DNA of 64,000 nucleotides. Origin: an uncultured Eubacteriales bacterium. GTDB lineage: Bacteria > Acidobacteriota > Aminicenantia > Aminicenantales > Saccharicenantaceae. Position 1 is the first letter of the stretch. Each line of letters begins with the position of its first letter. The notes beneath the pieces are model-generated. The model saw nothing but the letters and a program-made list of their open reading frames with translations. It had not been told where the DNA came from and made no database searches. The stretch spans positions 4,814-68,813 of the forward strand of contig CAZZCH010000001.1 in NCBI GenBank assembly GCA_964652895.1. The letters are read 5' to 3'. Both the position numbers and the translations under genes were made by a program. Of this stretch, positions 14,126 through 50,860 are shown one piece after another.

Positions 14126-14154
14126 TTGACCTCTCCTTTCTTTTAGATTAATAT
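14126..14154 (+). promoter_or_regulatory. sigma-70-like promoter (TTGACC, 17 bp spacer, TAATAT) driving the riboswitch-btuB transcript
   Basis: Good -35, 17-bp spacing and an AT-rich -10 located about 10 nt before the riboswitch starts. Confidence 0.45.
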
Positions 14155-14164
14155 TCCCGGCGGC

Positions 14165-14340
14165 TTATTCGAAGGGAAGTCCGTCGGATGCGGACACAGC
14201 CCCCGCTACTGTAACCGGGGACGAATCCCAAGAGACGCCACGGCCGCGAGGCTGGAAGGCTTGGGAGGAGGACGATCCGGGAGTCAGGAGACCTTCCGTA
14301 AGCCAGGGTCGACCGGTCTTCGGGCGGAAGACGGAATACT
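14165..14340 (+). ncRNA. cobalamin (B12) riboswitch
   Basis: Conserved elements of the B12 element: GAAGGGAAG...CCGC.ACUGUAACCGGGG...GCCAC and the B12-box AGUCAGGAGACCUUCC at 14282-14297. It sits immediately upstream of a TonB-dependent receptor gene. Confidence 0.75.
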
Positions 14341-32777: not shown

Positions 32778-34388
32778 TCAGGACCCCCGGGCAGAGCGGC
32801 GTCCGAGAGCGCCGAGGCCCAGGGCCTCACGAAGCGCGGCGTTGATCTGGGTGTTGTCGATGATAAGCCCCGGATACCAGGTCCCGCGGTATTTCATGAG
32901 ATAGCCGGCCGCGGCGCCGGCCACCGTCAGGCCGACGAGTTCGTTCGTGTGCCCCGCCGTGCCGAAAAAAACGTCCCCGTCGGGATAGACGTTGGGAGAG
33001 GCAAAGACGGGGGTCTTGAGCGTGACCCCGTTCGCGGCCACTCCCCTGTCGCTGCCCACGGGAGGCGGAGCTTCCGGATAGGCGACCCGCGGTTCCTGGC
33101 GGGGAAGGTCCCCGAGGCCGAGACGTTTCGCGCTATCGATGACAAGCCCGCCGGTGGCATGGTCGGCGGTCACGACCAGGACGGTGTTCGTCCAGTCTAT
33201 GGCGTCCCCCGGACGGTCGACGAAGGCCGTCGCCGCCCGAACCGCCCCGTCGAGATCGGCGACACAGCCGATCATCCCACGGAAATCGTTGTCGTGGCTG
33301 GCCCAGTCGATATCGCCCTGCTCGACCATCAAGAAAAACCCGTCGGGGTCTCCGCCGAGATAGTCGAGCGCGGCGAGCGTCGCTTCGGCGAGCGTCGGAT
33401 TCTCTTTGTTTCCGGGAACGACGCGGGGTCGCCCGGGGGCGTCCTCGGCCAGGGGAACCTCGAAGTTGCCGCCCCTGCCGCCGAACAGGCCGAAAAGCTT
33501 CTTGCCGGCCCGGCGGGCGGCCGCCGCGCCATCGACGATGGCCCGGCCTCCGTCGCCGCCGGGTATCCTTTCCACCAGCAGATAGTCCGGGGACGTCTTG
33601 AGGCCGAGATACAGGGATTCCGATATGTAACCCCGTTTGGGATTGAAGTCGGGGTTGTCGAGGAGCGGATGTCCGCCGCCGATGACGACGTCGGGCTTGA
33701 CACGGAGGATGATCTCGTCGGCGATGCCCAGGCCCTTGTATCCCTTGAGGCCGGTGTAGTAGGAGTTGCGGCTGGTGTTGTGGCTGACGAAGCCGGCGGG
33801 GGTGGCGTGGTCGAAGGGGACGGTACTGACGACGCCGATCCCGGCGCCGGTCCTGGCCCGGTATTCTTCGGCGATCGTGGTCAGCTGGCCGTCCGGAGGG
33901 TCTCCCGGGAGCCAGGCGAGGTTGCCGGAGTCGGTCTTGAAGCCCGTGGCCAGGGCCGTCGCCGCCGAGGCCGAATCCGTGGCCGGCCCGGGCGGGAAGG
34001 GATGTCCGGAGTCCCGGTCCGTGTGCGGCCTGGTGCCGTCCGCTTTCACATCATAGCCGAGCAGGGGCGTGAACGACGATCGAGAATAAGGAGGGCGGCG
34101 GGCCTTTCGGGCGTTCCCGTTGTAGACGTTGACATCCCACGTCGCGACATAGGCTTTGGCCGGGAACTTCTGCCAGGCGAGGCCGTCGTCGGTCCCGTAG
34201 AGGTAGCGGCTGGCCGCGACCTCCGACTCGGCCGACATCCCATCGCCGATGAAGAAGATGACGTGCTTCAGGGCTGGGTTGCGCCTGCCGCAGGCGGGAG
34301 AAACGACGATGCCGGCGCCGAGCAGGATAACGGCGAGGACCGCCAGGGCGGCTCGTCGGATTCCCGAACGATCTTTGGTCATAGCCAT
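32778..34388 (-). CDS. alkaline phosphatase (PhoA family)
   Basis: FFIGDGMS and TDSASAATALATG motifs (including the active-site Ser region), plus a signal peptide. Confidence 0.8.
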   Translation of the reverse strand: MAMTKDRSGIRRAALAVLAVILLGAGIVVSPACGRRNPALKHVIFFIGDGMSAESEVAASRYLYGTDDGLAWQKFPAKAYVATWDVNVYNGNARKARRPPYSRSSFTPLLGYDVKADGTRPHTDRDSGHPFPPGPATDSASAATALATGFKTDSGNLAWLPGDPPDGQLTTIAEEYRARTGAGIGVVSTVPFDHATPAGFVSHNTSRNSYYTGLKGYKGLGIADEIILRVKPDVVIGGGHPLLDNPDFNPKRGYISESLYLGLKTSPDYLLVERIPGGDGGRAIVDGAAAARRAGKKLFGLFGGRGGNFEVPLAEDAPGRPRVVPGNKENPTLAEATLAALDYLGGDPDGFFLMVEQGDIDWASHDNDFRGMIGCVADLDGAVRAATAFVDRPGDAIDWTNTVLVVTADHATGGLVIDSAKRLGLGDLPRQEPRVAYPEAPPPVGSDRGVAANGVTLKTPVFASPNVYPDGDVFFGTAGHTNELVGLTVAGAAAGYLMKYRGTWYPGLIIDNTQINAALREALGLGALGRRSARGS

Positions 34389-34436
34389 CTATTATAATCC
34401 AACGCGCAAGCCGGCATGAATTTTGGCGATGCGATC

Positions 34437-35684
34437 TTATATCCCGTACTTGGCGATGATCTCCTGCTTCGTCTTGCCGAGGATGTCGAACTTCCGGCCG
34501 ACCTTGGTGAAAGCGGCGAGGGCCTTGTCGAGATGGTGGATCTCGTGCCCGGCCGAGATCTGGGTCCGGATCCGGGCCTGGCTCTGGGGAACGACCGGAA
34601 AAAAGAAGCCGATGGCGTAGATGCCCTCGTCGTAAAGGGCCCGCGAGACGTCCTGGGCCAGCTTGGCGTTGAAGAGCATGACCGGGACGATGGGCGTGTC
34701 CCCTTCCCTGAGGACGAATCCCGCCTCGGTCAGGCCTTTACGCCAATAGGCCGCGTTCTTCTCCAGCTTGTCCCGCCGCTCGGTCGACTTGGAGATGATG
34801 TCCATGACCTTGAGGACGCCGGCGACGACGACCGGGGCGATGGTGTTCGAGAAGAGATAAGGCCTGGCCCGCTGGCGGCACAGCTCGACGAGTTCCTTGC
34901 GTCCGCTGACACAGCCGCCGGAGGCCCCGCCGAGCGCCTTGCCGAAGGTCGTCGTGATGACGTCCATCTTGCCGACGACGCCGCACTTCTCGTGGGTGCC
35001 ACGGCCGGTCCTGCCGATGAACCCGGACGCGTGGGAGTCGTCGACGAGGAGCATGGCGTCATATTTTTCGCAGAGGGCGGCCATCTCGTCGAGCTTGGCC
35101 GTGTCGCCGTCCATGGAGAAGACGCCGTCGGTGACGACGAGCTTGAAGCGCTTGTCGGCGTGGAGCTGGAGCTTCTCCTCGAGGTGGCCCATGTCGGAGT
35201 GCTTGATCGTGTCGTGCATGGCGCTGCAGAGGCGGATGCCGTCGACGAGCGAAGCATGGACGAGCCGGTCGGAGATGATGACATCGTCCTTGGTCAGGAT
35301 GGCCTCGAAGACGCCGGCGTTGGCGTCCATGCAGGAGGGGAAGAGGAGGGTGTCTTCGGTCCCCAGGAACTCGGTCATCTTCCGCTCGAGCTCGCGGTGG
35401 ATGTCCTGGGTGCCGCAGATGAAGCGGACCGACGACATGCCGTAGCCGCGGCTCTCGAGGCCCTCGTGGGCGGCCTTGACCACATCGGGATGGCTCGACA
35501 GCCCGAGGTAGTTGTTGGCGCACATATTGATGACCTTCTTGAGAGGCGAGCCGGTCGGGAATTCGACCTCGATATCGGCCGCCTGGGGCGAGTGGATGAA
35601 CCGCTCCTGTTTGAACAGCCCGGCGTCCTGAATGCCCTTGATCTGGGCCTGGTACGTGCCGCGGATCTTGTCGCTGTAAGCCAT
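34437..35684 (-). CDS. alpha-oxoamine synthase of the glycine C-acetyltransferase (Kbl, 2-amino-3-ketobutyrate CoA ligase) type
   Basis: 415 aa. The Kbl-type motifs are nearly invariant: CANNYLGL, SVRFICGTQD, VTDGVFSMDGD, HASGFIGRTGRG, TFGKALGGASGG (PLP-lysine), RPYLFSN, ARIRTQISAGH. AAGAAGGGG SD. Confidence 0.85.
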   Translation of the reverse strand: MAYSDKIRGTYQAQIKGIQDAGLFKQERFIHSPQAADIEVEFPTGSPLKKVINMCANNYLGLSSHPDVVKAAHEGLESRGYGMSSVRFICGTQDIHRELERKMTEFLGTEDTLLFPSCMDANAGVFEAILTKDDVIISDRLVHASLVDGIRLCSAMHDTIKHSDMGHLEEKLQLHADKRFKLVVTDGVFSMDGDTAKLDEMAALCEKYDAMLLVDDSHASGFIGRTGRGTHEKCGVVGKMDVITTTFGKALGGASGGCVSGRKELVELCRQRARPYLFSNTIAPVVVAGVLKVMDIISKSTERRDKLEKNAAYWRKGLTEAGFVLREGDTPIVPVMLFNAKLAQDVSRALYDEGIYAIGFFFPVVPQSQARIRTQISAGHEIHHLDKALAAFTKVGRKFDILGKTKQEIIAKYGI

Positions 35685-35688
35685 GGCC

Positions 35689-35946
35689 TTACCCCTTCTT
35701 CGCCAGGAATCTTTGGACGAGAGAGACGATCTTGTTGACCGAGTCGAAGGCCTCGGGCGTGGCCTCGTCGTCCGGGATGGAGATCCCGTACTTGTTCTCG
35801 AGAAAACGCTTCAGGGAGACCATCGAGAACGAATCGACGATGCCGCCGGAAATGAGGGGCGTCTCGTAGGTCAGGGGATCGCTGTCGTCCTCGAGGTACT
35901 CTTTCGTGACGTAGTTCAGAACGATGTCTTTTAATTCGTCGGCCAT
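35689..35946 (-). CDS. acyl carrier protein (dedicated, cluster-associated)
   Basis: 85 aa, acidic, with a GGIVDSFSMVSL phosphopantetheine-attachment serine motif. AAAGGAG SD. Confidence 0.7.
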   Translation of the reverse strand: MADELKDIVLNYVTKEYLEDDSDPLTYETPLISGGIVDSFSMVSLKRFLENKYGISIPDDEATPEAFDSVNKIVSLVQRFLAKKG

Positions 35947-35961
35947 AATTTATCTCCTTTA

Positions 35962-37665
35962 TCAATCGTTTTCGAGGGTGGACGTGTCGCCGATCTCCTC
36001 GCCCCACTCCTTGGCGTGGAGGATGCGGCGCATGATCTTGCCGCTCCGCGTCTTGGGGAGCGACGGGACGAACTCGATCTCCTGGGGCATGGCCAGGGGC
36101 GAGAGCTTCTTGCGGATGAAGTTCATGATCTCGAGGTCGAGGTCCTTGCTGGCCGTAAAGCCGGGCTTGAGGGTGACGAAGGCTTTGACCACCTCGAGGT
36201 TGATCGGGTCGGGCTTGCTGACGACGGCCGACTCGGCCACGGCCGGGTGCTCGAGGAGGGCCGATTCGACCTCGAACGGGCTGACGAGATGGCCGGCCGT
36301 GTTGATGATGTCGTCGTCGCGGCCGGCGAACCAGAAGTAGCCGTCCTTATCGATCTTGGAGCGGTCCCCGGTGATATACCAGCCGTTGCGAAACTTCTTC
36401 TGGAAGGCTTCTTCGTTGTTCCAGTACGTGCGCATGCGTGACGGCCAGTCGAACTTGAGGGCGACCAGGCCGATCTTGCCGTGCGTCGCGTAGGGCTCGT
36501 TCTTGACCGGGTCGAGGACGGTCCCGGTGATGCCCGGGAAGGGCTTGCCCATCGAGCCCGGCCGGACCTCCATGTCCGGGTAGTTGCTGATGACGATCGA
36601 GCCGGTCTCGGTCTGCCAGTAGGTATCATAGAACGGCATCCCGAAGACTTTCTGCGACCAGACGACGGCCTCGGAGTTGAGGGGCTCGCCGACGCTTGCC
36701 AGATGGCGGAGGGAGGACAGGTCGAATTTTCTAATGATCTCGTCGCCGGCCTTCATCAGGGAGCGGATGGCCGTCGGCGCCGAGTACCACATCGTCACCC
36801 GGCGCTTCTCGATCCACCTGTACCATGCTTCGGCGGAGAACCCGGCGTCGAGGACGCACTGGGTGACGCCGATGGCGAATGGCGCGATGATCCCGTATGA
36901 AGTGCCCGTGACCCAGCCCGGGTCGGCCGTGCACCAGTAGATGTCGTCTTCACGGAGGTCGAGGGCCCACTTGGCCGTCAAGTACTGAGAGATCAGGGAG
37001 TAATGGACGTGCTGGACGCCCTTGGGCATGCCCGTCGTACCCGATGTGTAGTGGAGGACGGAGGCCGACTCGGCCTTGGTCGGATGGATGTCGAGGTGCT
37101 CGACCGGAGCGGCCTTCTCGAGCGAGAAGGCGACCTCGCGGTCCTTGAGCGGGGTGACGCCGTCGTGGTCGACAAGGATGATGTGACGGATGTGGGGCAG
37201 TTTCTCGAGGATCTTGCGGACCTTGGGGGCGTGTTTCTTCTGGGTGATGACGGCGGAAGTTTCGGCGTTGGAGAGACGGACGAAGAGCGATTCGTCACCG
37301 AAGGCCGAGAACAGCGGCTGGGCGATGGCCCCGATCTTCAGGATGCCGAGGAAGCCGAGGTAGAGCTCGGGGATCTTGTCCATGAACAGGCAGACGCGCT
37401 CGCCGTCCTTCAGGCCGAGACCGCGGAGGAAAGCGCCGACGGTGTTCGAGGCCAGGCGGATGTCGTTGTAGGTATAGGTCTTTTCGGCGCCGGTGTGGCC
37501 TTCCCAGTGGAGGGCGACCTTCGAGCCTTTCCCCTGCTGGCAGATCCGGTCCGTGCAGTACCAGCCGATGTTGATGACGTCGCCCGGCCTGTAGCCGAGT
37601 TCATTTTCGGCGATCGTCCAGGAGAAATTCTTGACGCGTTCGTCGTACGATCCGATGTTCGACAT
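35962..37665 (-). CDS. AMP-forming acyl-activating enzyme of the acetyl-/propionyl-CoA synthetase subfamily
   Basis: YTSGTTGMPKG (A3), DTYWQTETG (ACS-family signature), GWYITGD, and the C-terminal SGKIMRR (A10 lysine). 567 aa. GGAGAGGAA SD. Confidence 0.8.
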   Translation of the reverse strand: MSNIGSYDERVKNFSWTIAENELGYRPGDVINIGWYCTDRICQQGKGSKVALHWEGHTGAEKTYTYNDIRLASNTVGAFLRGLGLKDGERVCLFMDKIPELYLGFLGILKIGAIAQPLFSAFGDESLFVRLSNAETSAVITQKKHAPKVRKILEKLPHIRHIILVDHDGVTPLKDREVAFSLEKAAPVEHLDIHPTKAESASVLHYTSGTTGMPKGVQHVHYSLISQYLTAKWALDLREDDIYWCTADPGWVTGTSYGIIAPFAIGVTQCVLDAGFSAEAWYRWIEKRRVTMWYSAPTAIRSLMKAGDEIIRKFDLSSLRHLASVGEPLNSEAVVWSQKVFGMPFYDTYWQTETGSIVISNYPDMEVRPGSMGKPFPGITGTVLDPVKNEPYATHGKIGLVALKFDWPSRMRTYWNNEEAFQKKFRNGWYITGDRSKIDKDGYFWFAGRDDDIINTAGHLVSPFEVESALLEHPAVAESAVVSKPDPINLEVVKAFVTLKPGFTASKDLDLEIMNFIRKKLSPLAMPQEIEFVPSLPKTRSGKIMRRILHAKEWGEEIGDTSTLEND

Positions 37666-37682
37666 GAGTGATTCCTCTCCGT

Positions 37683-38072
37683 TCAGGGTTGTGACGATTT
37701 CATTTCGAGGACGACGACGGCCGAGGCCAGGTCCTTGATATGGGTAAGCGAGACCTCCATGGACGAGATGCCGTGGGCCTCGCAGAACTCCTTGACCTTG
37801 CCGTGGATGAAAAGCTCGGGCTTGCCCAGGGCGTTGTTGACGACCTCGATCTCGGAGAACTTGTGGCCGCCGCTCCAGCCCGTGCCCATGGCCTTGAGGA
37901 AGGCCTCCTTGGCCGCGAACCGGGCGGCGAAATGCATGGCCGGGCGGTGTTTGGATTCGCAGTAGGCGATCTCGGTCGGAGTGAAGAGCTTTGTCTTGAG
38001 GCTCTCCGTGCGGACGAGCTTCTCCTCGACCCTTTGGACCTCGATGATGTCCGTTCCCGCCCCGAAAATCAA
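37683..38072 (-). CDS. acpS: holo-[acyl-carrier-protein] synthase (4'-phosphopantetheinyl transferase, AcpS type)
   Basis: 129 aa. The N-terminus (M)IFGAGTDIIEV and the core FAAKEAFLKAMG match AcpS. TTG start. Confidence 0.8.
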   Translation of the reverse strand: MIFGAGTDIIEVQRVEEKLVRTESLKTKLFTPTEIAYCESKHRPAMHFAARFAAKEAFLKAMGTGWSGGHKFSEIEVVNNALGKPELFIHGKVKEFCEAHGISSMEVSLTHIKDLASAVVVLEMKSSQP

Positions 38073-38194
38073 CGACTTGTGCGCCTTTCGTCCATGGAGT
38101 GCGGGCCCCGCGACACTTGGCCGGCCTCGAGGCGGCCGCGTTGACCGTCGGCCCGTAAAGACGGACCTTTATTATAGATAAGCGCCCTGAAATG

Positions 38195-38665
38195 TCAAAG
38201 AGGGATGCTGTTTCCTATCAGGATTCCAAGCAACATCTTATCTAGAAGATCAGCCGGACTGACCGTCTTAAAGGGAAAGCCACCCTTTTGGCCGATCTGA
38301 GAGATCAGATTTTTATCGCCCGTCACGAAATAATCGGCCTTCCCGTTGACGACCGAAACTAGGACAGGCAAATCCTTGTCCCCCACGGCGCCCCTAAAAG
38401 GGGCCAACTCCTCAGGGGCAGGTACGGAAATGACCTCGAGCTTCAGTTTGGGCAGAAATCGGCGGTAGGCCGGGAGTGCCTCGGGCATTTTCTTCCCGAT
38501 ATTCCGCTCGATCTCGATGAGATTGTAGCATCCCGTCAAGCCCGTCAGGGCCGGAAGATCCAGGCTCAGAATATCGAGGATCAGGCGCGGCGCTCCCCTC
38601 CATGATACCAGGCCGGATAGGATCACGTTCGAATCGAGGAAGATCCTAAGACTTCTTTTCGCCAT
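38195..38665 (-). CDS. PIN-domain toxin (VapC-like) of a type II toxin-antitoxin pair
   Basis: MAKRSLRIFLDSNVILS, a conserved Asp near the N-terminus, and a later D...D pattern. Its start overlaps the end of the upstream antitoxin gene by 20 nt. Confidence 0.65.
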   Translation of the reverse strand: MAKRSLRIFLDSNVILSGLVSWRGAPRLILDILSLDLPALTGLTGCYNLIEIERNIGKKMPEALPAYRRFLPKLKLEVISVPAPEELAPFRGAVGDKDLPVLVSVVNGKADYFVTGDKNLISQIGQKGGFPFKTVSPADLLDKMLLGILIGNSIPL

Positions 38666-38933
38666 AGGTCTCCTCGAAGAGGGCACGCCTCTCGTCCTCG
38701 AGGCCTTCGATCAGCTCCTCGAGCGTTGCACCCGAGGCCTTCATGATCCTGCCCAGCTCCCGGCGCGCTTCATCGAGTTCGAGTTTTCGCGGAGTGACCA
38801 GAATGGAGTCGCCAATGGGGATGATGGAAACGTTTTCTCCGTCATATAGGGTTCCCTTTTCCCGCACTTTCTTTGGGATGGTCAATTGCCCGCGTTCTCT
38901 TATCTGAGATTTATATGGTTTGGCATTGTCCAT
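38646..38933 (-). CDS. AbrB/MazE/SpoVT-family antitoxin
   Basis: 95 aa. QLTIPKKVREKG is a swapped-hairpin beta-barrel DNA-binding motif. The C-terminal half is acidic. Confidence 0.65.
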   Translation of the reverse strand: MDNAKPYKSQIRERGQLTIPKKVREKGTLYDGENVSIIPIGDSILVTPRKLELDEARRELGRIMKASGATLEELIEGLEDERRALFEETYGEKKS

Positions 38934-38962
38934 GGCGGCTCTCCCGTCGTAAATTCTGTATT

Positions 38963-38985
38963 CAGATTATCAGATATCTGATTAT
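38963..38985. promoter_or_regulatory. palindromic operator candidate (perfect 14-bp core ATCAGATATCTGAT) upstream of the antitoxin gene
   Basis: The palindrome is seen directly. It lies about 35 bp upstream of the ATG at 38933, where an autoregulated TA operator is expected. Confidence 0.4.
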
Positions 38986-39038
38986 TATGTCAAGGGGGAA
39001 TTCAATCAGTTTAGCGTATGGGCAGGACGTTCTCTCGT

Positions 39039-40565
39039 TCAGCGTCTGGCGCGCAACGTCGCCAGCGCTTCGGCGACCTCTTGGCCTTTGGCTTCGATCT
39101 CGTCCAGGATCTGCTCTGGGGTCCGTTCGTCCACGACGACCTTACGGTTGGGATTGACCGCCTTGAGGTCATAGCCCCGTTCCTCGATCTCGGCCCGGGT
39201 GACCGTCCAGCTCCGCTCGCTTTCGGCCCGCTCCGGCAGCAGTTTGAAGAATTCCTCAAAATGCGCCACCGTGAGAGGTGACTTTTTCCCTACCTTAATG
39301 TCCGAAAGGTCGAAATACCAAATCTGCTCCGTCGGTTTTCCCCTGGTGAAAAAGAGTAGATTAGTTTTGACGCCGGCCCCCGCGTTGACGAACGCCCCGC
39401 CGGAGAGGCTGATCAGGGCCCATAGGTCGCAGTCATCGAGCAATTTGCGCTTGGTTTGGACGAAGGCCGTTTCATTCGTCCGAAAAAGAACCCCCTCGTC
39501 GAGAACGATCCCGCATCGTCCGCCCGGCTTGAGCGAATCGATAACGTGTTGGAGGAAGAGGACCTGTGTCGCTCCCGTCTTGTAGGCGAAACGAGTTTGG
39601 GCCTCTTTGCCTTCCTTGCCCCCAAAAGGAGGGTTCGTCAGGACGACGTCGAAGAGAGCCGGCGCGTCCTGATAGAGCCCGCCGTAGATTTCATTCCCCG
39701 TGAGAGTGTTGCCGTGCCAGAGCCGCGGCTCGTCGATGCCATGCAAGATCAGGTTAGCCAGGGCGATCGGATAGATGAGATTTTCCTTCTCCCGGCCATA
39801 GAAGGTCCGTTGAGCGAGGGCATCGATCTTGTCGGGGGTCACGCCAGCTTTCGAATGCTCCCGCATGTAGAGGAACGACTGGACAAGGAAGCCGCCTGTT
39901 CCGCAACAGGGGTCATAAACCGTCTCTCCGGTTTTCGGGCCGATCGCCCTGACCATGGCCCGGATGACCTCACGGGGCGTGAAAAACTGCCCCCCGTCGT
40001 TGCCCTTCTCTCCCATCTTAAGGAGAAGTCCCTCATAGACCTGGGAAAGCGGAAAAACGTGAGTGGGGTCGATGGATTCGTTTGTGATTTCGTCGACTTT
40101 GTCCAAGACGTCGAGGAAGTTTCGCTCGGTATCGATGCGAACACGCTCGACGCCGGATAATATTTCGCTGATAACTTTCTGCCTGGAGGATGCGTTGGGC
40201 CGCTCTCGGAGCCCCCGCAAATGGGGTAAAAGCTCGCCGTTGACGAAGCCGAAAAAACCGCCTAAAGCCCCGTTCTGAAGTTCTACGCGCTTGGGCCCCT
40301 TAGGGTCGGCCCAATCCTTCCAGCGGAAAGGAGATTCAAGCGAGGGTATGTATTCCGCGCTAACGGCCTCCGACTCCTCCGCCTCCCGGGCCTCTTTTTC
40401 GTCCAGGATCCGAAGGAAAAGGAGCCAAGTCAGCTCCGGCACGTATTGCAGGGCGCCGGCGCAGTTCGAACGCCGCATGACATCGCATATGGACTTGACG
40501 GCAGAATTTACGGATCCCTGCGAATTCAGCCGCTTGCCGTTTCCATTTTTCCTCGCTCTGGCCAT
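39039..40565 (-). CDS. hsdM: type I restriction-modification system, N6-adenine DNA methyltransferase subunit
   Basis: N-terminal HsdM_N region, a DPCCGTGGFL SAM motif and an NPPFG catalytic motif. Confidence 0.9.
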   Translation of the reverse strand: MARARKNGNGKRLNSQGSVNSAVKSICDVMRRSNCAGALQYVPELTWLLFLRILDEKEAREAEESEAVSAEYIPSLESPFRWKDWADPKGPKRVELQNGALGGFFGFVNGELLPHLRGLRERPNASSRQKVISEILSGVERVRIDTERNFLDVLDKVDEITNESIDPTHVFPLSQVYEGLLLKMGEKGNDGGQFFTPREVIRAMVRAIGPKTGETVYDPCCGTGGFLVQSFLYMREHSKAGVTPDKIDALAQRTFYGREKENLIYPIALANLILHGIDEPRLWHGNTLTGNEIYGGLYQDAPALFDVVLTNPPFGGKEGKEAQTRFAYKTGATQVLFLQHVIDSLKPGGRCGIVLDEGVLFRTNETAFVQTKRKLLDDCDLWALISLSGGAFVNAGAGVKTNLLFFTRGKPTEQIWYFDLSDIKVGKKSPLTVAHFEEFFKLLPERAESERSWTVTRAEIEERGYDLKAVNPNRKVVVDERTPEQILDEIEAKGQEVAEALATLRARR

Positions 40566-40567
40566 AT

Positions 40568-41578
40568 CTACTTCCTTTTGCTGATGAGATTCATGACAAT
40601 GCGGATTATCGAATTCTTTTCCCGCGGCGAGCTCTCCGCAATGAGGAGCGTTATGGCCACAAGAGCGGTATCGGCAATTCGCTTCGTGCCGTCTTGATGA
40701 TAAAGCGAACCATTTTTCTCCATGAACCAGAGGAATAGCGCCGCCGCGATTCGTTTGTTGCCGTCCACGAAGCTGTGGTTTTTGACCAGGAAATAGAGGA
40801 GATGGGCCGCCTTCTCTTCGAGACCGGGATAAACGTCCTTCCCGTCGAACGTCTGCATGACGGCGTTAAGTGAACTATGGAGGCTGTCGTCCTTCTCGCG
40901 GCCGAAAATGTCCGAAGCGCCGAATTTCTCACGGAGCCGCTCGATAATGCTTTGAGCCTCGTCGTAGGAAATCGAATTCGCCCGGCCTTTTTGAACGGGC
41001 GCGGCAGGGATCTTCTGATGGTCGTAATCGTCGAGAAGGTCCAAGGCATAGGCGTAGTCCGTGACCACGCGCAACAGTGCTTTGGCCTCATCCGACGTAA
41101 CTTCGTAATGGTCCAGGACGTGCTCGACGAGCTGAAGCGACTGCCGAAGCTCCTTGAGGCGGTGCTCATTCGCCGTGTACCCCTTGACGATATGGTCCTT
41201 CAGAACGTTTGTGGCCCAGATACGGAACTGGGTCCCACGCTTGGAATTCACCCGGTAGCCGACGGAGATTATCATGTCAAGGCTGAAAAGGTCGATCTGG
41301 CGGATCTTGCCATCAGCAGCAACCTGTGCATTTTTTGCACAGGTTGATTTCTCGGCTAACTCATTGGTAGAGTAGATGTTGTGGATGTGTTTAAGGATAA
41401 CGGTACGATCACGCCCGAATAGGGCAGCCATCTGATGCGCGTCAAGCCAGACAGTATCCCGCTCAAGGCGTACCTCTAAGGCCGCAGGGCCGCCGGCTGT
41501 CCGATAGAGGACTATTTCCCCCTTTCTTTCACCAGGAATCCACCTATCTGCTTTTTCTTGGATTTTATTCTTTGCCAT
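40568..41578 (-). CDS. RhuM-family protein fused to a Fic/DOC domain
   Basis: The N-terminal 200 aa are RhuM-like (virulence protein family). The C-terminus carries the Fic motif HSFVDGNKRIAAALF, i.e. HxFx(D/E)GNKR. It is embedded between hsdS and hsdM. Confidence 0.8.
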   Translation of the reverse strand: MAKNKIQEKADRWIPGERKGEIVLYRTAGGPAALEVRLERDTVWLDAHQMAALFGRDRTVILKHIHNIYSTNELAEKSTCAKNAQVAADGKIRQIDLFSLDMIISVGYRVNSKRGTQFRIWATNVLKDHIVKGYTANEHRLKELRQSLQLVEHVLDHYEVTSDEAKALLRVVTDYAYALDLLDDYDHQKIPAAPVQKGRANSISYDEAQSIIERLREKFGASDIFGREKDDSLHSSLNAVMQTFDGKDVYPGLEEKAAHLLYFLVKNHSFVDGNKRIAAALFLWFMEKNGSLYHQDGTKRIADTALVAITLLIAESSPREKNSIIRIVMNLISKRK

Positions 41579-41580
41579 GG

Positions 41581-42795
41581 TCAGGGCTCTCCATTAAACG
41601 CCCTTCTTAATAACGCCGCAGGCAGGGAATTTATCTCATGGAGTTGTTTCTCGATATCGTTCCGGAGCCGTTCCGTGGATGCCATTTGCTCATTCAGAAC
41701 GGCCGCGATATGTTTTTGCTCGGCCATTTCACATACTGGGACTTGGAGGTTCTCTATATGCGGCCGCGTTATTTTTTTCATCGATCCACTGGCTCCACCA
41801 GCCTTCGATCTCCAATATCCGCTTATGAATAAAAAAGAAAGATAGTTTGTGAGAAATTCCGGATGTACATCATGGGCTGTTCTTATCCTGATCGTGAGAT
41901 CCGAGGCGACGATCTGATTGGCAGCACCTTTATAAAGAGAAACCCGGCCAACAAGCTCGGCCGTGTTGCTTCGAGCGATAAGAATTTCGCCCGGGTTCAA
42001 AATACACATTGGTACGTCTTTTGCCCTCATGTGGCCAGTTTTTATGCCATCATAAGAAAATCCGCCTTCCGTGAGACACGCGGTGGTAACTGCTTGGACT
42101 TCGACGTCCCCTTCAGTAGCAATGGATTTCGATGGCAAGAGTGTTGCAGTATTTCCTAATCTAGCCCACCGCCAGTCGGGAGGCAATTCCTGTCCTTCCT
42201 TAGGAAAGACCTGACCCAGATAAGCTGCCGGGAGCGCCTTTGCCGCCTCAAGCTGAGCCTCAGCGGCGGCTCGCGCTTTTTCCACAGCCCCCGTCTGCTC
42301 ATCGAGAATGGCAGCAATGCGCTTTTGCTCGGATAGGGGCGGGAGGGGTACGGCGAAGTCTTCAAGCTCCTTGCGATTGATTGCCCCGAAGGTGCTTCCA
42401 CTTCCCTTTCTCTCTAGGTTACTTTCTTCTTTTTTTATCCAGAACAAAAGGAAGTCCATTTCAATGCTATTCCCACACCGAACAGCAGCAAGCCCTCTCC
42501 CGATACAGCATTCTTGGTTGGCAACATTAGTTGGCCCAACGGGTGCTCTTACTGATATGAGTATGTCCTTTGCTTTTGCTAACTTTGTTGGCTCGACACA
42601 CCAGGCTCGAGGAATCGGATGCCGCTGGCCGAAATCAGCTTTTCCTTGAAAAAACGGGAGGCCCTCTGGGGCTTTTCGATAAGTATGACCAGGGGGAGAC
42701 TGACCTGCAATAATTTCACACACCTCCCCTAGTTCCACCCACCGCCAGCCGGGGGGTAAAGTTGGCTGCTCTTTCAATCTTCTATTGACATTCAT
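41581..42795 (-). CDS. hsdS: type I restriction-modification system specificity subunit (two target-recognition domains)
   Basis: Two TRD halves separated by the conserved LPPLSEQKRIAAILDE and (END) LPAALLRRAF coiled-coil spacers. Confidence 0.85.
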   Translation of the reverse strand: MNVNRRLKEQPTLPPGWRWVELGEVCEIIAGQSPPGHTYRKAPEGLPFFQGKADFGQRHPIPRAWCVEPTKLAKAKDILISVRAPVGPTNVANQECCIGRGLAAVRCGNSIEMDFLLFWIKKEESNLERKGSGSTFGAINRKELEDFAVPLPPLSEQKRIAAILDEQTGAVEKARAAAEAQLEAAKALPAAYLGQVFPKEGQELPPDWRWARLGNTATLLPSKSIATEGDVEVQAVTTACLTEGGFSYDGIKTGHMRAKDVPMCILNPGEILIARSNTAELVGRVSLYKGAANQIVASDLTIRIRTAHDVHPEFLTNYLSFLFISGYWRSKAGGASGSMKKITRPHIENLQVPVCEMAEQKHIAAVLNEQMASTERLRNDIEKQLHEINSLPAALLRRAFNGEP

Positions 42796-42906
42796 AGGTT
42801 TGTCTTAGATATTATAGCCAATCCGGTTATCCGGAGGTGGATGGCGAAGGCCATCGGGCCCATTTGGGCCTTTTTATTTCCGGGCTCCCGCTGTGTTTTC
42901 TTGGGC

Positions 42907-43533
42907 TCATGCCTTGGAAAGTCCTCGGAGACGCCGGTTCACGGCCTCAAGATTGAAGAACGAGGGGTTGAATCTTCCGCCCATCCACTCTTTGATCTCT
43001 TCGTGTTCAGGATGATTGGTGTCCTTGATGATTTCCAGTTTCCCGTAGTATCCGTAAAGGCCGCCGCTGTCCTCGGGCGGACAGGCATTCTCTCCTTCAA
43101 GGCACCGGGGATACGATGCCCCTTCATTTGGGAGATCGGCTTTCTCTACCGTGATTTCGTGGATCCAATCGTCTCCGAAATCATAGATATAGCGGAACGA
43201 TTTCCCGGTCGCGGGAATAACGTCCTTCGCCCTGACCCGGCTTTCATCGCGCATCTCGGGCGCGAACAGATTGTCCGACGATGCCGAAGGCCCATAATTG
43301 GTCCCGCCGATGACGAATTCATGAAGATGGTCATCCTCCCAGCCCATCGCCCACTGTAAAACTTTGTGCAAGACCGCCAGCCTGAGGCTGCCGGGGACTT
43401 GGATCCGGCGCCAGATCGGAGGTTTGGAGCCCGCCAAGACGACTTTTAGTTGGTATATGCCATCCTTCGTTACGGCTGAAGCCTGCCGCGCGCTCTTCGA
43501 GTGTCCGGAAGGAAGCCTCGTCTTGGTTTTCAT
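42907..43533 (-). CDS. pRiA4b ORF-3-like family protein (PF07929), unknown function
   Basis: YQLKVVLAGSKPPIWRRIQVPGSLRLAVLHKVLQWAMGWEDDHLHEF is the family signature. ATGA overlap with hsdR. Confidence 0.6.
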   Translation of the reverse strand: MKTKTRLPSGHSKSARQASAVTKDGIYQLKVVLAGSKPPIWRRIQVPGSLRLAVLHKVLQWAMGWEDDHLHEFVIGGTNYGPSASSDNLFAPEMRDESRVRAKDVIPATGKSFRYIYDFGDDWIHEITVEKADLPNEGASYPRCLEGENACPPEDSGGLYGYYGKLEIIKDTNHPEHEEIKEWMGGRFNPSFFNLEAVNRRLRGLSKA

Positions 43534-45896
43534 GTCTCGAACATCCTTTCCTTGGTCTCCATGAGGATTTCGGAGGGCTTGCCCATCGCTTTCAGGGCGG
43601 CCAGGCCGCCGGCGCCGACGACCTCGGGCGTCTGGAATACGGCCGGATTCTCCAGCCCTTCGGTGCCGGCCCGGGCGAATTGTCCAGCGACGGCGCGGAT
43701 GACGGCTGCCGTCTCCGTCGGCATCCCTTTCAGCCAGGCCTCGTGCTTGTAGGTGAAGGAATCAGCCCGCTCTCCTCGGGTTTTGGGTGCCATACCGTAG
43801 CCGAGCTCGGCTAGGACATCATAAAGGTCATAATCGAGCATGCCCTCGAGACTGCGGACCATGGGAGCGGACCGTCCGGCGTCGGGCAGATGGGAAATCA
43901 GATCCCGGCGCCTGGGCGGGACGACCCAGACCGAACGGAACTTCTCGAGCGTCGGCGCTTCCTTAACCAACCGGGCGGCCAGCCGTTCCTTGTATTCTTC
44001 GACGGTCACTGGCATGGCCTTTCCGTCTTCGTCAGTCACAATATAGCGCCCGGCAGCAGTGACCCGGACCTGGAAGCCTTCGACCAGAAGCACGCGCTCA
44101 GCTTCTCCCTCCGCTGAAGGCTTGTACTTGCGCTCGCGAGGCGGCCTATATTTCTCGCGGAACTCCTCACCGAAGAGCCGCGTCGCGTCGGTATAATCGA
44201 AGACACGGAACATGAGCTTGCCGTCCGGGGCATAGAGCCGGGTCCCGCGCCCGACCATCTGATAAAATGCGATCGGCGAGCGGACATATTTGAAAAAGAC
44301 GATATTACGAACGCATGGAACATCGACACCCGTGCTCAGCAAATCCACAGTCGTGGCGATAAAATAGCGGCGCGAAGCTCCGCGCAGGTCAGCCAGGTAC
44401 TCGTTGCCGCCTGAGGCCGCGGTGCATTTGAAAGCATACGGCTCGGCCCGTTGACGTTTCTTGCCGGCACACCAATCGGCGTAGAGATTGTTCAACGTCG
44501 CCGCGACGTCATCGGCATGCCTATCCCTGCGGCAGAAGATGATCGTCTTCTGCTCGGGCTCGCCGACGGCCAGGAGTTGTTCGAAAAGGCTCTCGCACAT
44601 CGCCGCGACGCGCTCGGGCATCAGGAGATGGTCCTCCAGACTGGGTGCGTCATAGTAGTCGCGGGCTTCGTCTTTAGTGAGCCCTTCTCCTGTAGAAGCA
44701 TCCTTAAGTTTCTTCCCGGCCAGGTCGTCTCGCGAAACGCCGCTCTCCCGCTCATTCACTTTCTTGTTGTCATGAAAGAGGTCGAACCGGCGTATTTCGC
44801 AAGCGGCAAGATAGCCGTCCTCGATGCCCTGGGCCATGTCATATTCATAGACCGGCTTGCCGAACCAGCGGATGTTGTCGGCCGTGATCTGAGCATCGTT
44901 ACGGAACTCCTTGGTCTCTTCCCTGATGTCGAGGCGTCGAGGTGTCGCGGTCAACCCGACTTGGATGGCCAGGGGATTACGGGTGAGAACCTGGGACCAC
45001 TTGCCCCAGGCGGAACGGTGGCACTCGTCGATGACGATGTGGCTGAAGTAGTTCTCGGGATAGTGGGTCAGGAGGAAGTTCGCGTCGGCGTCGTCCGTGT
45101 CCACGTCGAGCGTTTGATAGGTAGCGACGAGAATTCGAGCGTTTTTCTGGGGATTATCACCCGTGACCGCGGCGGCGTCGGCCCCAAACACGTTCTGGAA
45201 GGCTGAAAGTCCCTGGGACCGGAGTTCGTCCCGGTCGCAGACGAACAGGGCGCGACGGAGCTGGCCGGCATCGGCGATCCGTTTGAGAAGATTTACGGCG
45301 ATGAACGTCTTGCCCGAGCCCGTTGCCAGAGCAAGCAGGGCACGTTTTTCGCCGCGAGCAGTCTTTTCAAGGACAGCGCGGATCGCGGCGTCCTGGTAAT
45401 AGCGCCGCGTGGCTTCCCCACCGGCATAGCGGACGAGGAGCGGGCGCGCGGCCGGAAGATCCAGAGTAAAACCCATGTGCTTTTCATAACGGGCGCGCAG
45501 GTCGGCCGGGGCGGGGAAATCGGTCAAGGGCGCTGGCGCAGATGTCTGGCCGGTGAACCTATCGAATTCGACAAAAAGGTGTCCGTTGCTCGAGTAGACG
45601 AATGGGACGTTAAGCCGCTTACAGGCGGCATAGAGCTTAGCCTGTTCGAGCCCGTGAGTTGGGGGCAGATGCTCGGCCTTGGCTTCGATGAGGGCGACGG
45701 CGACCGGCTGGCTATCCAGAGTGGCCTTGACCCTGAGGACGTAGTCGATACGGCCTCGGGACCGGCGGCGCGGGCCGCTGTCCCCGATTTCTATGGCGCC
45801 AGCGGTTTCTTCCCGCCGAATGAGGTCTTCCGTCCAGCCGCGCCTGTGAATGGCGGGGTCGATTAGCTTCGCCCGAGTATCGGATTCGGTCAGCAT
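43530..45896 (-). CDS. hsdR: type I restriction enzyme R subunit
   Basis: N-terminal restriction-endonuclease-like domain, Walker A LATGSGKTF, a DEAH-box VIDECHRS, and helicase motifs up to QMVGRGTR. Confidence 0.9.
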   Translation of the reverse strand: MLTESDTRAKLIDPAIHRRGWTEDLIRREETAGAIEIGDSGPRRRSRGRIDYVLRVKATLDSQPVAVALIEAKAEHLPPTHGLEQAKLYAACKRLNVPFVYSSNGHLFVEFDRFTGQTSAPAPLTDFPAPADLRARYEKHMGFTLDLPAARPLLVRYAGGEATRRYYQDAAIRAVLEKTARGEKRALLALATGSGKTFIAVNLLKRIADAGQLRRALFVCDRDELRSQGLSAFQNVFGADAAAVTGDNPQKNARILVATYQTLDVDTDDADANFLLTHYPENYFSHIVIDECHRSAWGKWSQVLTRNPLAIQVGLTATPRRLDIREETKEFRNDAQITADNIRWFGKPVYEYDMAQGIEDGYLAACEIRRFDLFHDNKKVNERESGVSRDDLAGKKLKDASTGEGLTKDEARDYYDAPSLEDHLLMPERVAAMCESLFEQLLAVGEPEQKTIIFCRRDRHADDVAATLNNLYADWCAGKKRQRAEPYAFKCTAASGGNEYLADLRGASRRYFIATTVDLLSTGVDVPCVRNIVFFKYVRSPIAFYQMVGRGTRLYAPDGKLMFRVFDYTDATRLFGEEFREKYRPPRERKYKPSAEGEAERVLLVEGFQVRVTAAGRYIVTDEDGKAMPVTVEEYKERLAARLVKEAPTLEKFRSVWVVPPRRRDLISHLPDAGRSAPMVRSLEGMLDYDLYDVLAELGYGMAPKTRGERADSFTYKHEAWLKGMPTETAAVIRAVAGQFARAGTEGLENPAVFQTPEVVGAGGLAALKAMGKPSEILMETKERMFET

Positions 45897-50069: not shown

Positions 50070-50636
50070 TCAGCGGGCGAGATGTTCGATCAAGATCTTC
50101 ACGCCGATCCCGATCAGGATGAGCCCGCCGAGGAACTCGGCGCGCCGGCCCACGATCCGGCCAATGACCGGGCCGAGCTTAGCGCCGATGACCGTCAGGA
50201 CGAAGCTCGTCGCCCCGATGACCGTCGCCGGGAAGAAGATGCTCGTTTGGACGACGCCCAGGCCCAGCCCGACGGCCAGGGCATCGATGCTCGTGGCCAG
50301 GGCCAGGATGACGAGCCGCATCCCCTGTGTCTGGTCCGGTCGGCAGGCCTTCTCTTCTTCGCTCAGGCCGAACGACTCGTAGATCATCCGGCCGCCGATC
50401 ACGGCCAGTAATCCGAAAGCGACCCAGTGGTCGAAACTCTTGATGAAAGCGAGGAGCTTGTCCCCCGCGAACCAGCCGGCGACGGGCATGACGAACTGGA
50501 AGCCGCCGAAAAACGCCGCCATCCGGACGGCCTGTTTCATCGTCAGGCCCCTGGCTCCGCAGGCTATGCCCAATGTTGCGGCGAAGCAGTCCATGGCCAG
50601 GGCTACCGCGACTCCCAAAATTAAAATTAGCGACAC
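50070..50636 (-). CDS. mntP: manganese efflux pump MntP
   Basis: 188 aa, six TM helices, with the duplicated DUF204 halves and conserved acidic residues (AMDCFAA / SIDALAVG). GTG start with a GGAGAA SD. Confidence 0.8.
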   Translation of the reverse strand: MSLILILGVAVALAMDCFAATLGIACGARGLTMKQAVRMAAFFGGFQFVMPVAGWFAGDKLLAFIKSFDHWVAFGLLAVIGGRMIYESFGLSEEEKACRPDQTQGMRLVILALATSIDALAVGLGLGVVQTSIFFPATVIGATSFVLTVIGAKLGPVIGRIVGRRAEFLGGLILIGIGVKILIEHLAR

Positions 50637-50812
50637 GTGTATTCTCCGAGTCGGTCATTATAACAGAACCGGGATATCACTTCCTGAGCTGGGGGCGCCA
50701 CTGCGGGGTGACGGGTAACCGTCCGAATCCCCCGTAGCGGGGGGGGGAACCGCCGGGACTGGTCCCCGGGGGGCCGGGGGAAAGGATGGTTACCTGTCAC
50801 ACCAAAAAGCAC

Positions 50813-50841
50813 GTGGCGTCCCCAGCTAGCCATGCTATAAT
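50813..50841 (+). promoter_or_regulatory. candidate uvrA promoter with an extended -10 (TGcTATAAT)
   Basis: TGCTATAAT at 50833-50841, 20 nt upstream of the uvrA ATG. The -35 is weak. Confidence 0.4.
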
Positions 50842-50860
50842 AGGCAATTCGGTATCAGCC

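Follow-up and report, generated by a model that had tools for sequence, protein, structure and literature searches.

What does a cell do with an acyl carrier protein (ACP) encoded between an acetyl-CoA synthetase-like ligase and an enzyme that resembles glycine C-acetyltransferase (Kbl)? The question is raised by a cassette of four genes in a 64-kb stretch of DNA (hereafter the window) on contig CAZZCH010000001.1, from an uncultured bacterium of the Aminicenantia. In the 5' to 3' direction the genes encode AcpS, an AcsA-type ligase, an ACP and a Kbl-type alpha-oxoamine synthase (AOS), referred to hereafter as Kbl2. Reading the sequence directly placed all four co-directionally on the minus strand with gaps of only 17, 15 and 4 bp (Table 1), as an initial annotation of the locus had described. 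From the identities of the genes, their conservation and neighbourhoods, and the residues of pockets and motifs we infer an ACP-dependent cassette of threonine, glycine and acetate metabolism, in which ACP would be the thiol partner of both enzymes and acetate the acid. This much, leaving direction aside, is quite probable. The direction in which the cassette would run is argued more tentatively below.

Conservation and identity of the cassette proteins

At least 579 relatives of Kbl2 were obtained from 185,579 species-representative genomes, and the best 80 loci (78-97% identical) were analysed. They are labelled Aminicenantes/Acidobacteriota, Bacteroidota, Cloacimonadota, Zixibacteria, Delongbacteria, Ignavibacteriales, KSB1, Zhuqueibacterota, Marinimicrobia and Gemmatimonadota, so that the cassette spans at least nine phyla among these best 80 loci; four Aminicenantes metagenome-assembled genomes (MAGs) showed 94-97% identity to the window, which is evidently of Aminicenantes-like origin. 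When the window proteins were used as tblastn queries, the order ligase-ACP-Kbl2 was recovered in every locus with sufficient flank, at 70-97% identity to the window for the ligase and 62-95% for ACP. Because ACP and ligase occur in the same order at every far-reaching locus among the 80 retrieved, the arrangement is far beyond chance. The block is a real, strongly conserved metabolic module that is apparently uncharacterised in the literature searched, as first suspected: a full-text search found no paper on Kbl together with ACP, on an acetyl-ACP synthetase, or on this operon in Cloacimonas or Aminicenantes.

The GC content of the ligase gene follows that of its flanks (0.30-0.69, r = 0.94) while the proteins stay 70-97% identical. 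At the sequence level this points to long-standing purifying selection, and recent horizontal transfer was rejected as the cause of the high identity. Some older transfer between phyla is nevertheless likely, because Bacteroidota and Cloacimonadota are polyphyletic in the otherwise star-like tree of ligase and Kbl2. Small genes interrupt the cassette in single lineages (L045, L047 and L018; L numbers denote loci). They encode 23S-rRNA-IVP and PD-(D/E)XK proteins, are not conserved in other loci and leave the gene order undisturbed, and they were rejected as pathway genes.

The sequence of Kbl2 is clearly of the Kbl type and not of the Spt, BioF, ALAS or CqsA type, which bears out the early assignment. 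Kbl2 exceeded the cut-offs of both NCBIfam equivalog models for Kbl (NF005394, 563 bits against 460; TIGR01822, 559.8 against 493) and fell below those of the other AOS models (BioF, 360 against 426; ALAS, 252 against 338; CqsA, 198 against 428). Three Spt models gave 234-310 bits with cut-offs of 500-670, the score of 310 standing against a cut-off of 640. The PDB search returned Kbl chains at 460 bits (7bxp) and 444 bits (E. coli Kbl, 1fc4), compared to 231, 185 and 107 bits for Spt, BioF and CqsA, and Kbl2 aligned end to end with the solved Kbl structures. In the alignment to 7bxp the active-site motifs of the AOS family are kept, namely FGK249ALGG, with the pyridoxal phosphate (PLP) lysine K249 intact, H143 (VHAS), DDSH218 and RIRTQ.

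Although of the Kbl type, Kbl2 forms a clade of its own. Median pairwise identity was 81% among Kbl2 sequences (range 74-100%) and 59% among the canonical Kbl paralogues found at these loci; members of the two groups were 53% identical to one another. A loop signature of F115, P116 and M119 is present in all Kbl2 sequences, in which ILFPSCMDANAG replaces ILYSSAFDANGG of canonical Kbl. R140 and V142 are equally constant and turn the canonical DxLNHAS into DRLVHAS; the Asn of the former is shared by all 33 canonical sequences in the comparison. Further signatures are D158, H167, C269 and A273, and a five-residue insert near residue 40 and a C-terminal extension of about 13 residues are specific to Kbl2. 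The substitutions adjoin the motifs of the PLP site, including His143 in DRLVHAS, and surround the conserved YSSAFDANGG and LNHAS. As sequence changes, they are consistent with an altered thioester partner. Together with the invariant adjacent ACP and ligase, these clade-specific substitutions suggest that Kbl2 would use acetyl-ACP and holo-ACP instead of acetyl-CoA and CoA.

Two further kinds of AOS gene were observed at some of the loci (Table 1). Three Delongbacteria loci carry a tandem second Kbl2-like gene (59-60% identical), which has both the insert and the extended C-terminus and takes an intermediate position between Kbl2 and canonical Kbl. In L041, L042 and L060 (Zixibacteria, Ignavibacteriales) the gene directly after Kbl2 encodes a third and distant type of AOS, which is 31-37% identical to Kbl2 and scores under every AOS cut-off of NCBIfam; in L007 this type lies about 7.6 kb away on the opposite strand. 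The three adjacent cases hint that the acetyl-ACP pool may serve more than one PLP enzyme.

The ligase has AMP-binding and AMP-binding_C domains and the YWQTETG motif, from which it had been predicted to be a short-chain enzyme of the ACS type; the family scores and pocket residues agree. It passed the NCBIfam model PRK04319, 'acetate--CoA ligase', by a narrow margin (752.7 bits against 729), lay far below the cut-offs of the long-chain ligase models and had AcsA 9g79 (a 572-aa chain, 567 bits) as its best solved relative. The catalytic Lys543 and the motif PKTRSGKIMRR are kept. The ligase was aligned to Salmonella Acs and solved Acs chains, and residues were counted in 65 orthologues. V252, T253, V325 and W350 correspond to V310, T311, V386 and W414 of Salmonella Acs, which we take to be the acetate pocket of that enzyme. 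The first three are invariant in the 65 orthologues, and the fourth is Trp in 61 and Phe in 4. The pocket Trp sets the acyl range of Acs and is Gly in medium-chain enzymes (PMC10455477); because it is kept here, the pocket sequence makes acetate, or at most propionate, the likely acid.

A residue associated with CoA has been lost from the ligase. The equivalent of the A8-motif Arg R526 of Salmonella Acs is Leu460 in 65 of 65 orthologues, whereas it is Arg in the three solved Acs chains aligned. R191, R526 and R584 of Salmonella Acs are critical for the CoA-dependent second step, and in Acs from M. thermautotrophicus the R528A mutant is unsaturable for CoA while R528K and R528Q reduce kcat 130-326-fold (PMC10455477). 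The R191 equivalent falls in an alignment gap, apparently common to B. subtilis AcsA. The nearest full-length outgroups, from a library clustered at 50%, are at most 50% identical, compared to at least 70% inside the family, and by this measure the family is discrete. We propose from these sequence features that the enzyme is an acetate:[acyl-carrier-protein] ligase.

AcpS matched PF01648 in Pfam (E 7.6e-17) and exceeded the curated acpS cut-off (TIGR00516, 96.8 bits against 59.8). Neighbours were counted in the 50 of the 80 loci that have at least 2.5 kb of flank on both sides, and AcpS lies directly upstream of the ligase in 33 of these (34-95% identity), having diverged to 34-60% identity between phyla. 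It is plausible that AcpS is dedicated to the cassette ACP rather than a housekeeping enzyme; it would attach phosphopantetheine to Ser39 and turn apo-ACP into holo-ACP. ACP itself had no match in Pfam at E 1e-3 or better, PP-binding included. Its best NCBIfam match was ACP_for_OlsHI (E 2.1e-16), and further matches were to the cispentacin AmcB, DltC, AcpM and AcpP models, all below cut-off. Ser39, the predicted phosphopantetheine site, lies within the invariant motif GG(I)VDSFSMVSL, and D38-S39 are among the 29 invariant columns of the orthologue alignment. An AlphaFold model (pLDDT 86) has helices at residues 2-17, 39-53 and 70-84, with Ser39 opening the second; the Asp-Ser at the N-terminus of helix 2 of a small helical bundle, as in an ACP of the 4'-phosphopantetheine type, is thereby predicted. 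Public and metagenome data contained more than 8000 clusters (90% identity) related to ACP, and any names given were 'acyl carrier protein' only.

Neighbouring genes and related operons

L-threonine 3-dehydrogenase (Tdh) was found within 6 kb of the cassette in 20 of the 50 loci, as the Zn-dependent MDR type in 14 (NCBIfam PRK05396, 533 bits against 380) and the SDR type in 6 (250-450 bits to solved TDH chains, e.g. 2yy7, 3a4v and 5y1d). A canonical Kbl paralogue was within the same distance in 25 loci and scored 610-669 bits on the Kbl models, above Kbl2. Six loci have Tdh without any other Kbl, and 19 have neither. Recurrent arrangements were Tdh-AcpS-LIG-ACP-Kbl2, Tdh-Kbl-LIG-ACP-Kbl2 and Tdh-LIG-ACP-Kbl2-Kbl (LIG, ligase), the ligase-ACP-Kbl2 triad being inserted on either side of canonical Kbl. 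The recruitment of two non-homologous Tdh types to the same cassette is strong evidence that 2-amino-3-oxobutanoate is a metabolite shared by Tdh and the cassette. In 8 of the 50 loci Kbl2 is followed, in the same orientation, by an acetate or monocarboxylate transporter, and three unrelated families are represented: SatP/YaaH (PF01184), an SfMCT-type MFS protein (356 bits against 320), and a VC_2705-type Na+ symporter (SSF; 506 against 320) with a DUF4212 partner.

Clustering of 1185 open reading frames (ORFs) from the 80 loci, together with a Pfam census of 123 immediate neighbours, brought up no partners other than Tdh, Kbl, AcpS, transporters and genes of lineage-specific synteny (such as MntP, UvrA, GltX and Pat-like). 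Among the 123 neighbours no tailoring, export, signalling or receptor genes were conserved round the cassette, and ceramide synthase or reductase genes were not conserved near it in the related loci. The recurrent neighbours, Tdh, canonical Kbl and acetate transporters, place the cassette in primary threonine, glycine and acetate metabolism and not in a signal or lipid pathway. The products first suggested, which were an aminoacetone or pyrazine signal, a CqsA-like autoinducer or a head group, found no support. The description of the cassette as self-contained needs one qualification: relatives often add Tdh, canonical Kbl and acetate transporters, none of which lies in the window, and AcpS is adjacent only in the 33 loci mentioned.

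Two other neighbours were observed. A Pat-like protein, with ADP-forming Acs domains and GNAT, lies near the cassette in 7 of the 50 loci. At about 895 aa it recurs with a porin-like outer-membrane protein without family match in L022, L046, L050, L069, L071, L074 and L082, in Aminicenantes, Bacteroidota and Gemmatimonadota; it may exert lysine-acetylation control over the ligase, whose PKTRSGKIMRR motif is kept. In the Zixibacteria locus L025, and similarly in L041, the cassette is headed by an SDR-type Tdh, which is immediately preceded by a TPR + sigma-54 activator and a 260-aa protein with one BMC (microcompartment shell) domain.

Among the outgroups, a wider ligase clade is recognised by its A8 'GHL' variant, and carrier proteins recur beside this clade in three operon types, which supports ACP as the acceptor for the window ligase. 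In the P0126-type sub-clade the ligase is 47% identical to that of the window and has an identical NTAGHLxSPFEVES. Its operon partners are a 370-384-aa protein, a DltB-like MBOAT protein (231 bits), a 37-aa microprotein ending in FIYVDF and a carrier of 79-84 aa. BLASTP shows homology between this carrier and the ACP of the window (E 5e-11 and 3e-13), and the best NCBIfam family is the same for both; the first protein of the operon (384 aa) had no match in the PDB or NCBIfam. FIYVDF resembles the C-terminal Tyr hexapeptide of PatA (FIYANF), which is described as shared with DltX (PMC12148441). This is a Dlt-like system with an ACS-like enzyme in the place of DltA, in which the ligase must load the carrier; acetate or another short acyl group may thereby be passed from the carrier to a cell-envelope polymer. 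No similar carrier is part of the MBOAT/SGNH acylation pathways outside Dlt (PMC12148441), suggesting that this ligase-carrier system is also undescribed.

The P0124-type ligase is 49% identical to the window ligase, has the A8 Leu and scores 906 bits on PRK04319. In four of the five loci examined it belongs to a tight operon of five genes with E1alpha of the pyruvate dehydrogenase (PDH) type (442 bits against 394), E1beta, E2 and an AcpP-like ACP of 83-89 aa; in Hyalangium minutum it stands alone. The operon, which is apparently self-contained, suggests a 2-oxoacid dehydrogenase that delivers acetyl to ACP, with the ligase supplying or discharging the ACP.

Mechanism, direction and rival explanations

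In the proposed mechanism the ligase would adenylate acetate and transfer the acetyl group to holo-ACP (acetate + ATP + HS-ACP <-> acetyl-S-ACP + AMP + PPi). Kbl2 would use the product with glycine (acetyl-S-ACP + glycine <-> 2-amino-3-oxobutanoate + HS-ACP), and Tdh, which is adjacent in many relatives and encoded elsewhere in this genome if at all, would complete the path (2-amino-3-oxobutanoate + NADH <-> threonine + NAD+). The steps of Acs, Kbl and Tdh are all reversible in principle. A private ACP would constitute a small thioester pool uncoupled from the cellular acetyl-CoA/CoA ratio, so that a reaction disfavoured with CoA could be driven by mass action. Such a carrier would make sense in either direction, with an acetylation ratio far from that of acetyl-CoA to CoA. 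Condensation was presupposed in the initial annotation; the choice between it and the thiolytic, ATP-yielding reverse is not settled by the evidence.

We lean slightly to the acetate-consuming direction, in which scavenged acetate would be loaded on ACP, condensation with glycine would follow and reduction would give threonine, a C2 + C2 route driven by ATP. The SPT-AcpR-AasR triad (PMC9386255), the closest precedent known for the cassette, supports this lean. Further support comes from the Dlt-like sister ligase with its NTAGHLxSPFEVES, which must load its carrier. The transporters after Kbl2 also favour it by recalling the acs-actP arrangement of E. coli. Taken whole, direction included, the statement that the cassette is a carrier-protein-dependent branch of the Tdh/Kbl pathway from acetate and glycine to threonine is a tentative one, which we consider quite possible and would not yet call probable. 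Several points weigh against it. The CoA 3'-phosphate contact R584 is kept in the ligase as R518. The A8 Leu also occurs in the Hyalangium minutum enzyme, annotated as acetate--CoA ligase; because that copy stands alone, Leu460 by itself is not diagnostic, and the Arg-to-Leu change, as a mark of a wider clade, is weakened as a sign of ACP use. Tdh, canonical Kbl and acetate transporter genes are all absent from the 64-kb window. Canonical Kbl shares an operon with the cassette in 25 of the 50 loci, and to our knowledge Tdh-Kbl operons are catabolic wherever studied; an anabolic cassette beside them would amount to an acetyl-CoA synthetase by a roundabout path, or to a futile cycle. Condensation by Kbl without decarboxylation would be thermodynamically uphill because the chemistry is that of a retro-Claisen reaction, and we know of no physiological threonine synthesis by reversed Tdh and Kbl.

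The same enzymes and the same acetyl-ACP, run in reverse, would yield an energy-conserving threonine fermentation (threonine -> glycine + acetate + ATP). Tdh would oxidise threonine, Kbl2 would cleave 2-amino-3-oxobutanoate with holo-ACP to glycine and acetyl-ACP, and the ligase would work backwards (acetyl-ACP + AMP + PPi -> acetate + ATP + holo-ACP), with acetate leaving through SatP or MCT. Exergonic thiolysis would drive the ACP pool to near-full acetylation and supply the approximately 10 kJ/mol missing for ATP formation from AMP and PPi. Tdh and the canonical, catabolic Kbl are co-oriented operon mates of the cassette in 20 and 25 of the 50 loci, respectively, and mates normally share direction. 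All of the best 80 loci come from MAGs, and the lineages are fermentative or anaerobic (Aminicenantes, Cloacimonadota, Bacteroidales, Zixibacteria, KSB1 and Marinimicrobia), and an AMP-forming Acs in Syntrophus aciditrophicus reportedly runs in reverse for ATP synthesis. Because a 2-oxoacid dehydrogenase works only towards the thioester, the PDH-type operon closes on itself only if its ligase consumes acetyl-ACP. The transporters, too, can equally export acetate, although the Na+-coupled SSF symporter beside the cassette in L018 argues for uptake. Also against a reversed cassette, the Dlt-like sister system clearly loads its carrier, we are aware of no carrier-loading ANL enzyme that runs in reverse physiologically, and a PPi source would be needed. 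Hosts of the Bacteroidales type normally have Pta-AckA, which would make the branch partly redundant. On balance we regard the fermentative direction as possible but somewhat doubtful. A broader version, in which Kbl2 charges a private ACP and the reversed ligase makes ATP from AMP and PPi as an unrecognised substrate-level phosphorylation, would also explain the PDH-type operons and amount to a general 'acetyl-ACP energy module'; this we hold to be speculative and a little more doubtful again.

Explanations outside this pathway fare worse. A specialised aminoketone formed from acetyl- or propionyl-ACP and glycine, whether aminoacetone or alkylpyrazines, a CqsA-like signal or a lipid head group, is improbable. 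It is well established that 2-amino-3-oxobutanoate decarboxylates spontaneously to aminoacetone, and the third-type AOS paralogues after Kbl2 in L041, L042 and L060 would suit such a product. Cassettes of ANL ligase, ACP and AOS are, moreover, typical of natural-product and lipid pathways (PMC9386255). The conserved surroundings of the cassette, on the other hand, lack tailoring, export and receptor genes and hold Tdh, canonical Kbl and acetate transporters as recurrent partners, and the CqsA model scores less than half its cut-off. The very strong purifying selection across phyla is also unlike secondary-metabolite genes, which usually diverge faster. More improbable still is an ordinary, CoA-using acetyl-CoA synthetase and Kbl that lie by chance beside a housekeeping acpS and an unrelated ACP. 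Both enzymes exceed NCBIfam equivalog cut-offs and R518 is kept, but ACP lies between them at gaps of 15 and 4 bp in the window and in the same order at every related locus, in at least nine phyla. A separate canonical Kbl is often right beside Kbl2, the A8 Arg is lost from the ligase, and Kbl2 and the ligase are discrete, tight clades with fixed signature substitutions. A conventional core for sphingolipids or long-chain bases (Spt, ACP and acyl-ACP synthetase), whose three-gene architecture matches the SPT-AcpR-AasR triad, is effectively refuted by the Spt scores and by the short-chain pocket of the ligase, where the Trp that bars chains beyond C3 is retained; ceramide genes are not conserved nearby in the related loci. 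The initial annotation had set its proposal against two alternatives, an enzyme pair of the long-chain, Spt type and the absence of a conserved block, and neither was found.

The cassette in its window and among known systems

The positions of the cassette genes and of the other features are collected in Table 1. Purine-rich, Shine-Dalgarno-like stretches (GGAGAGG, AAGGAG and AAGGGG) precede the genes for the ligase, ACP and Kbl2, respectively. A sigma-70-type promoter-like site, inferred from its sequence to be a candidate promoter of the cassette, lies about 99 nt upstream of the AcpS start and overlaps the stop of an upstream PIN-like gene; the scan gave 3 sites in 6.5 kb, compared to 1.4 expected. 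No terminator-like sites were found between the cassette genes in a scan of the cassette region. The longer ORFs on the opposite strand are shadow ORFs due to high GC. In the window and four related loci, Rfam gave no riboswitch or leader near the cassette, and control of this kind was rejected, the only match being a cobalamin riboswitch 20 kb off (RF00174, 98 bits). This riboswitch lies directly upstream of a gene for a TonB-dependent receptor; the two presumably serve B12 uptake and are unrelated to the cassette.

Table 1. Positions of the cassette genes and other features; window positions are those of the 64-kb stretch, and L numbers denote loci elsewhere.
Feature	Source	Position	Strand	Remark
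AcpS gene	window	38072..37683	minus	129 aa, TTG start
AcsA-type ligase gene (LIG)	window	37665..35962	minus	567 aa
ACP gene	window	35946..35689	minus	85 aa
Kbl2 gene (Kbl-type AOS)	window	35684..34437	minus	415 aa
Sigma-70-type promoter-like site	window	38171..38198	minus	TTGACA-16 nt-TATAAT, 12/12 consensus matches
Opposite-strand shadow ORF (example)	window	34416..35738	plus
Alkaline-phosphatase-family gene	window	32778-34388	minus
Lower-GC island	window	38195-45896	minus
MntP and UvrA genes	window	50070-53653
Cobalamin riboswitch	window	14127-14314	plus	RF00174
TonB-dependent receptor gene	window	14374-16317	plus
Second Kbl2-like gene	L011	1964-3223		Delongbacteria
Second Kbl2-like gene	L021	11288-12532		Delongbacteria
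Second Kbl2-like gene	L044	2666-3904		Delongbacteria
Third AOS type	L041	11257-12681
Third AOS type	L042	11753-12988
Third AOS type	L060	~2598-3221
Third AOS type	L007	12629-13903
Inserted small gene	L045	7384-7728
Inserted small gene	L047	7349-7720
Inserted small gene	L018	9174-9596
Porin-like and Pat-like genes (example)	L069	11502-15606
TPR + sigma-54 activator and BMC-domain genes	L025	2878-7542		Zixibacteria
Dlt-like operon	L083	4090-8641		Firmicutes-like contig
Dlt-like operon	L086	4061-8680		Firmicutes-like contig
Dlt-like operon	L088	1132-5801		Firmicutes-like contig
PDH-type operon	L090	7001-12200		Thalassobaculum fulvum
PDH-type operon	L091			long metagenome contig
PDH-type operon	L092			long metagenome contig
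PDH-type operon	L093			long metagenome contig

Directly upstream of AcpS is an island of lower GC content (0.53-0.57, compared to 0.62-0.67), which carries in order two small ORFs without Pfam match, HsdM, a RhuM/Fic protein, HsdS, a PRiA4_ORF3 protein and HsdR. The two small ORFs are taken to be a toxin-antitoxin pair, and HsdM, HsdS and HsdR make up a type I restriction-modification system. MntP and UvrA abut AcpS in Aminicenantes loci of the Saccharicenans type (e.g. L016, L019, L022 and L046), as canonical Kbl does in the close relative L005; in the window they are 12 kb from AcpS. On the other side, downstream of Kbl2, lies a gene of the alkaline phosphatase family, separated from Kbl2 by 48 bp that contain no terminator-like site. 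It was rejected as part of the module, being kept only in the closest Aminicenantes relatives (77-83% identity) and not always adjacent.

Among known systems, the cassette resembles threonine degradation by Tdh and Kbl (the kbl-tdh operon of E. coli) in that Kbl2 passes the Kbl models, Tdh flanks the cassette in 20 of the 50 related loci and the reaction (glycine + acetyl thioester <-> 2-amino-3-oxobutanoate) is presumably shared. It differs in that Kbl2 forms a clade apart from canonical Kbl (about 53% identity) and is always paired with ACP and an acetate-activating ligase, and in that the thiol partner would be ACP. In the SPT-AcpR-AasR triad of Rhodobacteria the AOS has a preference for acyl-ACP, and the ANL ligase acylates no ACP but its own (PMC9386255). 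There, as here, an AOS, a dedicated ACP and an ANL ligase are encoded together as a conserved set and primed by AcpS. In the cassette, however, the AOS is of the Kbl and not the Spt type, the ligase is of the ACS type with an acetate pocket and not long-chain, the amino acid is presumably glycine, and the context is Tdh and acetate transport rather than ceramide synthesis. Kbl does not decarboxylate, which leaves its reaction reversible, unlike that of the SPT triad.

AcsA-type Acs (B. subtilis AcsA, 9g79) is likened to the cassette ligase by its score of 567 bits, the acetate pocket, the catalytic Lys and PKTRSGKIMRR; the cassette ligase is set apart by Leu for the A8 Arg (R526/R528) in 65 of 65 orthologues, by the identity gap and by its constant adjacency to ACP. 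The Dlt pathway (DltA, DltC, the MBOAT protein DltB, DltX and DltD) likewise has an adenylating enzyme that loads a small dedicated carrier, and DltC is among the matches of the window ACP, but the cassette ligase is ACS-like rather than DltA-like and the acceptor is a cytosolic PLP enzyme rather than a membrane acyltransferase. CitC and MadH, of citrate lyase and malonate decarboxylase, form an acetyl thioester on a dedicated ACP at the expense of ATP in anaerobic metabolism, as is proposed here. The likeness is one of description and not of sequence: they belong to a non-ANL family, their ACPs have a different prosthetic group, and the ligase only primes a catalytic cofactor.

The cassette is abundant, with at least 579 genome matches, in uncultured anaerobes of sediments and digesters, including Aminicenantes, Cloacimonadota, Zixibacteria, KSB1, Marinimicrobia and environmental Bacteroidales. 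Annotation pipelines name its genes 'acetate--CoA ligase' and 'glycine C-acetyltransferase', and models of metabolism in these organisms are therefore probably in error at this step. If ACP is indeed the thiol partner, acetyl-CoA synthetase and Kbl would have ACP-dependent counterparts that form a closed acetyl-ACP shuttle in central threonine, glycine and acetate metabolism. In either direction this would be new biochemistry, as an ATP-driven C2 + C2 route to threonine or as a PPi-dependent, ACP-based and ATP-yielding step in threonine fermentation.

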